Below, piece by piece: positions 2,723 through 9,552 of a stretch of 31,489 nucleotides of DNA. How positions within the stretch are numbered: position 1 is the stretch's first letter; every line of letters starts with the position of its first letter. A program made the position numbers and the translations under genes. Location: contig JBEHXF010000021.1 of the NCBI GenBank assembly GCA_048498835.1, positions 1 to 31,489 of the forward strand, in the 5' to 3' direction. The notes under the pieces were generated by a model that made no database searches, was not told the origin of the DNA, and saw only the letters and a program-made list of their open reading frames with translations. The DNA comes from Chlamydiota bacterium. Lineage in GTDB: Bacteria > Chlamydiota > Chlamydiia > Chlamydiales > SM23-39.

Positions 2723-3724
2723 TCACTCCGGCCTGGGCTTGCTTTCATGGATGTAAGCTGGCGATACCTGGATAAACTCCGCTTTTCGCTGTAACTCCTT
2801 GATATTCCTAGCTCCCCCGTAGGTCATTCCGCTGCGAATTCCGCCTAAAAGAAGGTTTAATAGATCTTCGGTAGCCCCTGAAACGGCCCCCCAAAAATCG
2901 ATCCCTTCGGCTACCGTTTTCGCTTTAAGCCCACCATAAAATTCATTTTGAAAGTCGGCCGACGCCTGGCCGCGAAACTTCGCCTCCTCCCCTTTCGTCC
3001 CTTTTCTTTTCGGCGCGGCGCTCTCAGAGGTGAGCGCGAAGAGCTTGCCCACCATGACGGTGCTAGCTCCGGCCGCCAGAGCGAGGACTACATCGCGACT
3101 GGTTCGGATACCCCCGTCTGCGATGAGAGGAACTCGGAGCTTTTCTGCGATCCGGGCGCAATCTTGTACAGCCGTAAACTGCGGCACGCCAAACCCGGTG
3201 ACCATGCGAGTGGTGCAAGCCGCTCCCGGTCCCACTCCCACCTTAACGGCGTCTGCTCCGGCATTGACGAGATCGTGATAGGCCATTGCGGTGCAAACAT
3301 TGCCCGCAATGATTTCTCGGTCGGGATGGGTCCGTTTTAATTCTTGAATGTGGTGAAACATGCGGTCGGAGTGACCGTGAGCCACGTCGATGCAGACGCC
3401 GAGCGCTCCCAAATCGAGAAGGCGGCGCGTTTCATCGAGCTTTCCGATGCCACAAGAAATAAACGTTTTTCCCTCAAATTTTTTAACCCACTTGATTTGC
3501 TCTTCGATGGGAGTGAAACGGTGAAAGATTGGAATCGATCCCTGCTCGATCAGAATGCGAGCCATCTCTTCGCTAATGACCGTATCCATATTTGCTGCGA
3601 TGATCGGAATTCCAATTTTAAGCCGTCTCGTGAGCCAGCTCTCTAAAGAGGGCTCTGTTCTCGATGGAATGTTATTGAATTGAGGAACTAAGGCAACATC
3701 GTCGTAGGTCATCCCATAGCGCAT
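2723..3724 (-). CDS. guaC: IMPDH/GMP-reductase family oxidoreductase without CBS domains, probably GMP reductase
   Basis: Motifs ANMDTV, IDVAHGH, catalytic [15 protein letters not shown] and [12 protein letters not shown]. The flap (GQAS...[13 protein letters not shown]) lacks the IMPDH Arg-Tyr dyad and resembles GuaC. Confidence 0.7.
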
Positions 3725-3804
3725 AGAAAATCTCGTTAAGTCGGAAAAAGTCTATCTTTTTTCTCTATTCCTAGCGATCGATTTTTGCTATTCTTAGAGA
3801 CTGT

Positions 3805-4614
3805 ATGATCACGATTTGCATTTTAGCAAAAAATTCAGCTCAAACGTTGCGAGCCGCCCTCGACTCGGCTTCTGTATTTCCAGAAATCATCCTTCTGGAC
3901 AATGGCTCGACCGATGATACCATTCAGATCGCCCAAACCTATCCCAATGTAAAAGTGATTCGACAAGAATTCATCGGATTTGGCGCTCTGCGAAATGTGG
4001 CGGCCTCTCATGCAAAATACGATTGGATCTTAGCTCTCGATACCGATGAAATTCTCTCTGCAGATCTTTTAAGGGAGATTTCTCTTTTATCGCTAGAATC
4101 TAAAACGGTCTATTCGATTCCGCGCCACAATTTTTACAATCACAAACACATCAAGGGCTGCGGCTGGTCTCCCGATCGAGTTGTTCGTCTCTACAACCGC
4201 ACCTCAACCCGCTATTCTGATGCAGAAGTACACGAATCCGTCAAAATTGGAACGCTCACAATACAAAACTTGAAACATCCGATTTTTCACACTCCATTTC
4301 GTTCCACTTCAGAATTTCTAGCCAAAATGCAGCACTATTCTTCGCTCTACGCCCACCAATATCGGGGCAAAAAAAAGTCTTCACCGCTGAAAGCGTTCAG
4401 CCATAGCCTCTTTGCTTTTATCCGCTCTTATTTTTTTCAATTTGGATTTTTGCTTGGCGCGGAAGGATTTATCGTTTCTCTCTATAATTCCAACTCAGTT
4501 TTTTATAAATACATCAAGCTCTGGGAAGAAAATCGGAAAGTCTATAAGATGAAATCCATGAAAAGGCTTCCCTTTTACTCTCTTTCTCGTTGGTGGGCAT
4601 CCGCCCAGAAATAA
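3805..4614 (+). CDS. GT2 glycosyltransferase (KdtX/WaaE-like, LPS core)
   Basis: Motifs LDNGSTDDT, GFGALRN, WILALDTDE, VHES, GFLLGAEGF and KYIKLWE, followed by an extra C-terminal tail. Confidence 0.88.
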   Translation: MITICILAKNSAQTLRAALDSASVFPEIILLDNGSTDDTIQIAQTYPNVKVIRQEFIGFGALRNVAASHAKYDWILALDTDEILSADLLREISLLSLESKTVYSIPRHNFYNHKHIKGCGWSPDRVVRLYNRTSTRYSDAEVHESVKIGTLTIQNLKHPIFHTPFRSTSEFLAKMQHYSSLYAHQYRGKKKSSPLKAFSHSLFAFIRSYFFQFGFLLGAEGFIVSLYNSNSVFYKYIKLWEENRKVYKMKSMKRLPFYSLSRWWASAQK

Positions 4615-4661
4615 TCCTTTCGCTCTATTTTTAATCTTTTAACTTTAGGATCCACCAATGA
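4558..4661 (+). promoter_or_regulatory. Putative Trp-responsive leader peptide (MKRLPFYSLSRWWASAQK) and anti-RBS translational attenuator
   Basis: In-frame ATG at 4558 and TGG TGG at 4591-4596. 4587-4602 is complementary to 4648-4661, the RBS and ATG of the transporter. Confidence 0.6.
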
Positions 4662-5824
4662 CAACCATTTCTTTATCTAAACAAAACGTTTTCGGCGCTA
4701 CGATGATGGTGACCGGTTGCTGCATCGGCGCCGGAATGATCGGCCTGCCCATCGTCAGCGCAGCTGCAGGGTTCCTCCCCTCTTGCGTCGCCATGCTTAT
4801 TGCCTACCTCTTTACCACCTCAACAGGCCTGTTGCTGTTAGAAGCGACTCTCTGGTTCGACGGAAGAGTCAATCTGTTCACCATTTCTAACTTCGCGCTG
4901 GGCCGAATCGGCAAATACGCCGTAGCGACTTTATTTCTCCTCTTGTTTTACGCCATTTTTATAGCCTATTTCGACGGAGGGGCGCAGCTGTGCAATCTTG
5001 TTCTCGGTCCCCTGTTTACAGGGTCGCTACCCAAGAGCGCGGGGCACTTCCTCACATTAGGAGCCATTGCCTCCACACTGTATTGTGGCGCGCGAGGAGT
5101 CGATCGATTGAACCAGTTTTTGCTGATCGGACTTGCGCTCTGCTACGCTAGTATCGTGACGCTGGGCCTTTCTCATGTAGATGCGAATCGCCTTTCCCAC
5201 CAAAACTGGAGTCAATCACTCAGCATCTTACCCATTCTCTTCATCTGCTTTGGGTATCAAAATTTGGTTCCCAGCTTGACCCATTATTTGCAAAAGCAGG
5301 TTTCGGCAATCCGGTTTGCGATCATTGTTGGAAATCTGATTCCGATGCTCTTTTACGCACTTTGGAATTATACGATTTTAGGAATGATCGAACCTTCTAC
5401 GCTTTCTTCTGAACATGGGTTGATCGCAGAAATGCTCGCCAAAAGCGGGACTTCCATTCCCCTTTTGGTGCAATTCTTTTCATTTTTCGCGCTCTTCACC
5501 TCTTTCATTACGGTATCGTTTTCCTTTGTCGATTTTTTGCGCGACGGGTTCACCAAGCCTCCCCGAGAATTTACGCTCGCAGCACTTGCTCTGATTCCTC
5601 CATTTGCAATTAGCCTTACCTTTCCTGAGCTCTTTCTCAAAGCGCTCTCATTCGCTGGCGGCTTTGTCGATACCATTCTCTTTGGCATCATTCCCGTTCT
5701 GATTGTATGGATCGGTCGCTATCATAAAAAAGCGATCGGCTCCTATCAAATGGCTGGCGGAAAAGTGGGGCTCTCCTTTTTACTGCTTCTATCTTTTCTA
5801 TTTCTTGCACTTAGGTTTGTATGA
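4658..5824 (+). CDS. tyrP: Aromatic amino-acid permease (HAAAP; TyrP/Mtr family)
   Basis: Motifs GATMMVTGCCIGAGMIGLP, FGYQNLVPSL, FALFTSF and ALSFAGG; about 11 TM segments. Confidence 0.88.
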   Translation: MTTISLSKQNVFGATMMVTGCCIGAGMIGLPIVSAAAGFLPSCVAMLIAYLFTTSTGLLLLEATLWFDGRVNLFTISNFALGRIGKYAVATLFLLLFYAIFIAYFDGGAQLCNLVLGPLFTGSLPKSAGHFLTLGAIASTLYCGARGVDRLNQFLLIGLALCYASIVTLGLSHVDANRLSHQNWSQSLSILPILFICFGYQNLVPSLTHYLQKQVSAIRFAIIVGNLIPMLFYALWNYTILGMIEPSTLSSEHGLIAEMLAKSGTSIPLLVQFFSFFALFTSFITVSFSFVDFLRDGFTKPPREFTLAALALIPPFAISLTFPELFLKALSFAGGFVDTILFGIIPVLIVWIGRYHKKAIGSYQMAGGKVGLSFLLLLSFLFLALRFV

Positions 5825-6261
5825 TTCATGTTTTCGACACAAAGCCACCTTCTTTTAAAGCTGCCGTCGAGATAGCCGCTTGTTATGTAGAGTGGGATAA
5901 AACATTACTGCTTCTTCAGTTGCCTCTTCATAAAAAAGAGGCTGGCTACTGGGGTGTGCCTGCAGGCAAGCTGGAGCGCGGAGAAACTCCTCTACAAGCA
6001 GCTAGGCGGGAACTAGAAGAAGAGACCGGAATCGAAGCAAAAGAATCTCAACTGGTCTTTCTCGCAACTCTCTATATGCGTAAGCCAGAAATGGATTACC
6101 TCTACCATATGTTTCAAGTTCGACTTGATCGAAAGCCCAATGTCCATTTATCTTTTGAACACCAACTGTACCGTTGGATTCCAATCGATCAGCTCGAGGA
6201 GACTCCGCTTATGTTGGGTGCTAAAGAATCGCTGGAAAAATACTTTTTGGGGACGCTGTGA
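5821..6261 (+). CDS. Nudix hydrolase
   Basis: Complete Nudix box GKLERGETPLQAARRELEEETGI; ATGA overlap with the upstream stop. Confidence 0.92.
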   Translation: MIHVFDTKPPSFKAAVEIAACYVEWDKTLLLLQLPLHKKEAGYWGVPAGKLERGETPLQAARRELEEETGIEAKESQLVFLATLYMRKPEMDYLYHMFQVRLDRKPNVHLSFEHQLYRWIPIDQLEETPLMLGAKESLEKYFLGTL

Positions 6262-9093: not shown

Positions 9094-9192
9094 ATTCTTT
9101 TCGCGTATTTGTATTTTCTCTCCATGAATTGTAAAAATATATTTACACAAAACTAACACATTCTTTATGAAATGAAAAAGGCGGAGGTTCTT

Positions 9193-9552
9193 ATGACTCC
9201 TTCCAATCCCATCCATAGTTTACCCGAAGAAATCCTTATTCATATCGGCACTTTCCTCGATGCAGAGGACGTCGGCTCTTGTCAAAAAGTTGCTAAAAGT
9301 TGGCACAAAGCGCTGCAAGATCGCTCTTTGTGGGAGGAACTGATCCGTCCCCTCCTCCTTCAATTCCCCGATTTTGAGCGGCTCGAAGATCCAAAGAAAA
9401 CCTATCGACTTCTATACAGATTGCTCTATACAAATGAAGAAGAATTAAACGTGCATCTAGAAAAGACCTGCGCCAAAATGAAAATGGATGACCGGATCTA
9501 CTTCTTCCATAATTCTGGCCTATCTAAACGCCACCTGATGATCGGCGTCTAA
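9193..9552 (+). CDS. F-box domain protein (eukaryote-like effector candidate)
   Basis: IHSLPEEILIHIGTFLDAEDVGSCQKVAKSWHKALQDRSLW matches the F-box consensus. GGAGG RBS precedes ATG 9193. Confidence 0.85.
   Translation: MTPSNPIHSLPEEILIHIGTFLDAEDVGSCQKVAKSWHKALQDRSLWEELIRPLLLQFPDFERLEDPKKTYRLLYRLLYTNEEELNVHLEKTCAKMKMDDRIYFFHNSGLSKRHLMIGV

Follow-up and report, generated by a model that had tools for sequence, protein, structure and literature searches.

A small open reading frame (uORF) with tandem Trp codons near its end, located directly upstream of an aromatic amino acid permease gene in a chlamydial genome, is a real, conserved leader that belongs to a chlamydial TrpL-type family, as judged by comparison across related loci. 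We consider it very likely that this element is a Trp-sensing leader. For its mechanism, we favour, with a probability of about 0.55, a two-layer model in which Rho-dependent termination is combined with occlusion of the permease start region. The window, i.e. the whole 31,489-nt stretch of DNA analysed, is contig C21 of a Chlamydiota genome (G000; 97% complete). The relevant features are:

3805..4614, + strand: GT2 glycosyltransferase ORF, 269 aa, whose frame continues into the leader
4545..4550, + strand: TAAGAT, a -10-like box 7 nt 5′ of ATG 4558; candidate leaderless start
4549..4551, + strand: second in-frame ATG (ATGA), upstream of ATG 4558
4558..4614, + strand: leader uORF, MKRLPFYSLSRWWASAQK followed by a stop, homologous to chlamydial TrpL-like leaders
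4567..4590, + strand: pyrimidine tract 1, 92% U/C over the 24 nt that precede W; rut-like and/or anti-RBS
4587..4596, + strand: locus-specific anti-start strand, able to pair with 4652-4661
4591..4596, + strand: tandem Trp codons, TGG TGG; putative sensor
4594..4607, + strand: conserved hairpin UGGGC-AUCC-GCCCA, whose 5′ arm begins within the Trp codons
4615..4646, + strand: pyrimidine tract 2, G-poor, non-coding, rut-like
4647..4661, + strand: AGGA Shine-Dalgarno-like (S-D) site, spacer and permease ATG; target of the predicted helix
4658..5824, + strand: TyrP/Mtr-family aromatic amino acid permease, 388 aa; member of a trpR-linked clade
5821..6261, + strand: NUDIX hydrolase, overlapping the permease stop (ATGA)

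The GT2 frame extends beyond KYIKLWE into MKSMKRLPFYSLSRWWASAQK and ends at the stop codon at 4612-4614, from which a spacer of 43 nt leads to the permease ATG (4658). The permease matches Trp_Tyr_perm, and scores below the cut-off of all three of the NCBIfam models araaP, TyrP and Mtr. It is probably co-transcribed with the NUDIX hydrolase gene. The GT2, permease and NUDIX proteins are all singletons in clustering at 90% identity. The coordinates given in a preliminary description of this locus were all correct on recheck, as was its statement that no intrinsic terminator is visible: none was found on the + strand in 3650-4900, and none is conserved across the family. Elsewhere in the window, positions 9172-9552 encode a 126-aa F-box-like protein; the F-box is a eukaryote-type domain common in environmental chlamydiae.

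A leader family upstream of chlamydial permeases

We gathered permease homologues from 61 relatives and from 400 genomes of the order. Loci were those returned plus 60 more by rank, with 27 weaker listed matches left out and one duplicate of the window dropped, such that the sample represents the best-scoring homologues and not a random draw. A leader was defined as an ATG-initiated ORF of up to 45 aa, with W within the last nine residues, a pyrimidine content of at least 70% over the 24 nt preceding W, and a stop codon 30-270 nt before the gene. Among these best-scoring homologues, 32 of 117 chlamydial TyrP/Mtr loci, counting the window, passed the rule. The same rule picked out 17 of 1300 crude gene calls in G000, and two of these 17 are true leaders. 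This conserved uORF family supports the earlier suggestion of a Trp-sensing leader for the permease. Six further leaders (L113, L121, L123, L138, L140 and L007) can be seen by eye but fall outside the rule, and the family was defined at about 40 loci. Its peptides consist of an F/S-rich run followed by W(W) near the end of the uORF, and the spacers between leader and gene range from 43 to 198 nt. The expectation that WW peptides would precede tyrP/mtr orthologues was borne out, in the form W(W), in these 32 loci but not for the two closest permeases (58%, in G018, and 53%, in G448), where no leader was seen; the G448 locus has a gap of Ns 50 nt upstream.

The leader at L168 is identical, bar one residue, to the putative Chlamydia felis TrpL in the available text of PMC3937554, and was matched by our covariance model. 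As in that peptide, the window leader has tandem Trp codons near the ORF end and an F/S-rich stretch before them. A pattern scan of species-representative genomes returned six matches: three chlamydial, all following trpR, and three that are chance occurrences inside coding genes of non-chlamydial phyla. At one of the chlamydial matches, L209, where trpR, leader and permease are adjacent, the leader ends in KKRRLNSLFSSFRWWASAQ. It is identical to the window over 21 bases (4587-4607); the two permeases have 45% identity over 193 aa.

A covariance model built from 29 leaders and scanned across 150 genomes of the order gave 26 matches in 24 genomes, 11 of them training loci. Seven of the 15 non-training matches precede genes for TrpD-type proteins (two), a TrpB-type protein (one; Pfam PALP), a DAHP synthase (one; no in-frame ATG was found for this leader) or permeases (three). 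The remainder are two W leaders before unknown genes and six matches with no clear leader. The window leader scores 39 bits, with all family hallmarks intact. A second scan added six weak matches, none before a gene recognised as Trp-related, and weak matches to the model are unspecific. Rfam yielded no match near threshold, only two junk matches far below the cut-off. A metagenome scan found 11 permease loci; none of the ten inspected has a WW leader, and two of them had <35 nt of upstream sequence.

Several related elements were observed alongside the family. The window's own genome has a second family leader, MKDNQTSNSFFFFYWPWCQTPFFFI, at C15:31244-31315 (L162:1501-1572), with a consensus promoter (TTGACA-18-TATAAT-7-ATG). 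It precedes a 360-aa hydrophobic protein that has one weak homologue in 60 relatives, no Pfam family and only low-score, effector-like Atlas neighbours. The small genome G179 has two leaders (L179:1501-1572 and L189:1501-1572), one after trpR and before a TrpD-type gene, the other before a TrpB-type gene. The permease ATG of L077 is out of frame, probably due to a homopolymer indel, and the leader frame of L128 is interrupted just 5′ of FFWWQ. L182, L197 and L199 (each 1501-1572), all from one family of genomes, have the tract-hairpin-tract layout without Trp codons; they precede an MFS transporter and two other genes, and two of them have TGTGCC...GGCACA at a possible Cys codon. They may represent a sister leader that responds to a different amino acid. 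Other short ORFs without Trp lie upstream of the permease paralogues L024, L027 and L029, among them a His-rich one ending in SHFHHSLLGYIN and an F-rich one, MNFFFYQTLFFHP; these might sense other amino acids.

trpR linkage and the glycosyltransferase frame

In a tree of the 117 permeases, the window permease falls in a clade of 20 rows (SH-aLRT 100) that includes all eight trpR-linked permease loci, six of which carry a leader; 13 of the 20 rows lack one. Relative to the trpR stop codon, the leader ATG is at -16 to +1 nt in six of seven loci, and many family leaders stand alone, without trpR. The window leader follows GT2 rather than trpR, and a search of G000 (97% complete) found no trpR (Trp_repressor). 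By its place in the trpR-linked clade, the permease directly downstream of the window leader is a putative Trp supply gene.

An operator-like palindrome similar to TGTAATGGTGTAACATTACA precedes trpR in six of the eight trpR-linked permease cassettes. It was seen before trpR in L003, L063, L065, L066, L072, L074, L168 and L189, and about 50 nt before the permease in L068, L084, L154 and L155; none was found near the window. From its position, this palindrome is probably the TrpR operator. Where a permease lacks the leader, the palindrome is often found immediately before the gene; repressor and leader thus seem to be alternative modes of control.

Neither a WW tail nor a permease gene downstream was seen in any of 29 GT2 orthologues, 27 of which stop 10-30 aa past the KY.K motif. 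In the window, the two remaining frames each reach a stop codon within 4545-4552, and a 1-nt indel would therefore be enough to uncouple GT2 from the leader. For these reasons, the leader-permease unit was most likely moved behind GT2, with the fusion being a local accident; possibly, the fusion is a 1-nt assembly error. In either case, a ribosome arriving through GT2 meets the WW codons. The regulatory leader is indeed embedded in the end of a putative LPS enzyme gene here, as had been described, but as an accident of this genome, and fusion to GT2 as a conserved trait is rejected. We conclude that the leader family is of more interest than the glycosyltransferase fusion.

Conserved RNA features and predicted folding

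Across the leaders, a U/C tract of about 25-30 nt precedes W, and four-fold degenerate third positions before W are 79% pyrimidine, compared with 57% in coding sequence; both values are partly circular, because leaders were selected for at least 70% pyrimidine in this region. The second tract is unaffected by the selection rule. This post-hairpin sequence contains 22.6% C and 4.9% G, whereas sequence upstream of leader-less permeases contains 16.2% C and 12.6% G. Rho is encoded in G000, and the features of a rut as described in the accessible part of PMC12121999 for toiL, i.e. C-rich, G-poor sequence that overlaps the leader, are found in the family, although its tracts are richer in U than in C.

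The hairpin between the two tracts is supported by 24 double-sided changes, a score equalled in 0 of 500 shuffles and higher than that of any slid register. Two registers are mixed, such that only 66% of hairpin cells pair, and the alignment was fitted to the model. Native hairpins are also more stable than those with swapped arms (-8.0 versus -5.7 kcal/mol). As in classical trpL, the tandem Trp codons of the window leader lie in the first arm. However, a classical antiterminator/terminator is rejected: only four of 39 leader spacers include a terminator-like stem, no covarying partner was found for the 3′ arm of the hairpin (p = 0.79), and the window has no such terminator. The hairpin itself is likewise rejected as an intrinsic terminator, since only six of 39 loci have a passable U-rich tail. 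The 39-locus set used here and below leaves out L066, in which another small ORF intervenes, and L186, which has no ATG.

TANNNT occurs 7-8 nt before the leader ATG in 14 of 31 leaders (40 candidate starts), compared with 92 of 1325 genes (7%). Leaders begin either next to trpR or 7-8 nt downstream of this motif, and many of them therefore look leaderless. A leaderless start, which had been proposed for the window, is supported as a putative family trait, whereas the box in the window lacks a good -35 and does not appear among promoter-scan matches, making this a weak promoter by consensus.

The preliminary description had also proposed that the Trp-codon segment pairs with the RBS and start codon of the permease, and that a stalled ribosome relieves this pairing. 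Positions 4587-4596 and 4652-4661 can form 10 bp, including one G-U, and 4599-4602 can pair with 4648-4651. The leader-permease region folds more stably than chance would predict, with a minimum free energy z-score of -2.18 (6 of 200 shuffles). The duplex between the WW segment and the start region is predicted at -20.1 kcal/mol, which ranks second among 1300 G000 start regions and places the segment's own start in the top two; the segment was picked after the match was seen, and the next-ranked start regions are close behind (-19.8 to -19.2 kcal/mol). No cross-locus leader:start pair of 930 reached -18. In the predicted ensemble, an 8-bp helix over the AUG has a probability of about 1.0, in keeping with the proposed duplex, but the additional 4 bp over AGGA reach only 0.23. 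The hairpin at 4594-4607, which had been viewed as a competitor, has a probability of 0.71 and coexists with the 8-bp helix, such that it is not a simple competitor.

Modelling supports the proposed direction of the switch at the window locus. Opening the start region is predicted to cost 10.0 kcal/mol in free RNA, 3.5 with a ribosome stalled at WW and 12.9 with a ribosome at the stop codon. In the stalled model, the AUG is about 0.2-0.65 unpaired, depending on the length folded. The S-D site is still mostly paired, to other U/C stretches; it is the AUG side that is freed.

We compared this pairing across loci. WW segments do not pair significantly better with their own RBS than with those of other loci (p = 0.15 for 31 loci; p = 0.10 for 39). 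The L209 duplex, despite 21 nt identical to the window, is predicted at -7.8 with no switch, and L074, which is colinear with the window from WW to ATG and has a 44-nt spacer, has a duplex of -6.3 and a switch of 0.4. Hence, the WW:RBS/AUG duplex is rejected as the mechanism of the family, and the anticipated covariation between Trp codons and RBS was not found: what the Trp codons pair with across the family is the local hairpin arm. By contrast, the tract before W prefers its own RBS over those of other loci (p = 0.0003, 39 loci), whereas control regions in the coding sequence and spacer show no significant preference of this kind; permutation p-values overstate significance because the loci are related. 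The mean predicted switch is 2.1 kcal/mol for native loci and 1.0 for chimeras (Wilcoxon p = 0.013), and exceeds 5 kcal/mol in 7 of 39 native loci versus 4.5% of chimeras. A switch of over 2 kcal/mol is predicted for 13 of 39 loci; the 26 loci at 2 kcal/mol or less include the nearest leaders (L074, L072, L168 and L189) as well as L209 and L212. In these models, occlusion of the start region appears as an extra layer at roughly one in three loci, in differing registers, and is strong in the window.

Mechanism, alternatives and known systems

The shared RNA core fits a ribosome stalled at the Trp codons that hides a rut-like site. In the model that we favour, the element is a TrpL-type leader remaining from a cassette of operator, trpR, leader and permease; trpR would have been lost, and the leader-permease unit would now lie behind, and in frame with, the GT2 gene. 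Ribosomes would enter at ATG 4558, probably on a leaderless transcript, or through GT2. When Trp is plentiful, the ribosome would clear WW, halt at 4612 and depart. The naked RNA would then expose two U/C-rich, G-poor tracts flanking a short hairpin, which could serve as a rut-like loading site, and at the window locus the Trp-codon strand would pair over the permease AUG. As a consequence, the permease would be left untranslated and Rho would terminate transcription in the spacer or the early coding region; given a spacer of only 43 nt, this would have to fall within the untranslated permease gene, similar to toiL-topAI. When Trp is scarce, the ribosome would wait at WW and cover tract 1 and the hairpin, thereby freeing the AUG and blocking Rho, and the permease would be made. 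The model builds on the leader family, its covarying hairpin, the base content of the tracts, the distance to the -10 motif, the association with trpR, the presence of Rho and the predicted helix switch. It postulates the start site, translation of the uORF, ribosome stalling, a role for Rho and transport of Trp by the permease. Base composition suggests the involvement of Rho, and chlamydial Rho acts during Trp limitation according to the available portion of PMC7755916.

If attenuation were purely translational, with the U/C tract or Trp codons masking the RBS/AUG, stalling unmasking it, and Rho not primary, the strong helix and switch in the window would be expected, as would the preference of the pre-W tract for its own RBS (p = 0.0003 over 39 loci, with non-significant controls) and the larger switch of native loci than of chimeras (2.1 versus 1.0 kcal/mol). 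There is also a precedent in the leaderless polycysteine sORFs of mycobacteria, as far as the consulted part of 10.1101/834739 describes them. Nevertheless, 26 of 39 loci, the nearest leaders among them, switch by 2 kcal/mol or less, spacers vary from 43 to 198 nt, and the conserved hairpin and the G-poor tract past the stop would be left unexplained. We regard this explanation as rather unlikely.

Sensing might instead involve the Phe codons or the F-rich nascent peptide, either as joint Phe and Trp sensing or as TnaC-like, peptide-dependent arrest. Phe makes up 123 of 305 residues counted before W, and aromatic permeases as well as a DAHP synthase are among the putatively regulated genes. 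However, the window leader has a single Phe, the peptide sequence is poorly conserved except for W, and the (partly circular) pyrimidine bias at third positions points to selection at the RNA level; we consider this improbable. It is more doubtful still that the leader is a relic of the trpR cassette that no longer regulates, with a chance helix and a permease read from the GT2 promoter. The failure to find trpR in G000 or an operator-like palindrome near the window, the weak promoter, the GT2 fusion and the leader-less closest permeases are in line with decay, whereas the intact hallmarks (39 bits), the 21 nt shared with L209 despite permeases only about 45% identical over 193 aa, the second intact leader with a consensus promoter in G000 and a helix near the top of 1300 start regions argue against it.

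We see even odds that the family is a Chlamydiota class of its own: a terminator-less Trp attenuator with a leaderless or trpR-coupled uORF and a Trp-codon hairpin between rut-like tracts. Its ribosome-read regulon would take in permeases, trp genes, a DAHP synthase and the hydrophobic protein, which is uncharacterised, and would operate even in genomes in which TrpR was not detected. Start-codon occlusion would have been added separately in some lineages, and at the window a full-length GT2 ORF could act as leader.

Leaders that sense amino acids are textbook knowledge, and the chief host defence signal that chlamydiae face is Trp starvation. One member of the family was flagged in 2014, in the text available of PMC3937554. 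Full-text literature searches turned up no description of the family upstream of chlamydial permeases or TyrP, nor of its hairpin, tracts, RNA structure or leaderless starts, although subscription papers or supplements may contain one. For C. trachomatis, the accessible parts of PMC7755916 and PMC6504234 treat cis-attenuation as open and trpL as atypical and unvalidated; about 40 covarying leaders, which include natural variants with or without start-codon occlusion, make this question testable. Leader presence helps to assign Trp specificity among the many chlamydial TyrP paralogues. Few leaderless mRNAs are known from this phylum (for C. pneumoniae, 5 of 437 in the part of PMC3333780 consulted), and the family points to leaderless uORFs there. 

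In E. coli tnaC, a stalled ribosome hides a rut site beside a short Trp-containing ORF, and TnaC stalls at its own stop codon in Trp excess through the nascent peptide; the window leader is instead predicted to stall at its Trp codons under Trp shortage. The E. coli trpL attenuator works through 1:2/2:3/3:4 pairings. As in the trpL described in the accessible text of PMC7755916, the tandem Trp codons lie in the 5′ arm of a leader hairpin and stalling is expected to switch the genes on, but the window family has no conserved antiterminator or U-tailed terminator, and its start is leaderless or trpR-coupled. The putative C. felis TrpL, in the portion of PMC3937554 available, is located between trpR and the anthranilate phosphoribosyltransferase gene; that portion describes attenuator structures as unreported and proposes no mechanism. 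It shares with the window leader an F/S-rich run ending in WWAxAQ and a stop codon; however, it precedes biosynthesis genes, whereas the window leader is found before a permease, is fused to GT2 and no longer has trpR. The mycobacterial polycysteine sORFs, as presented in the part of 10.1101/834739 seen, are leaderless short ORFs at several loci per genome in which a stalled ribosome frees a sequestered RBS. The chlamydial family may resemble them in these respects; it differs in using Trp, in the prediction of RBS occlusion for only about a third of loci, and in having a conserved codon hairpin and rut-like tracts. Lastly, in E. coli toiL-topAI, going by the available part of PMC12121999, a uORF base-pairs with the start that follows it, translational repression results in termination by Rho, and the leader overlaps a pyrimidine-rich rut, as is predicted for the window locus. 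Unlike the window leader, toiL senses antibiotics rather than an amino acid; the two were compared by description.
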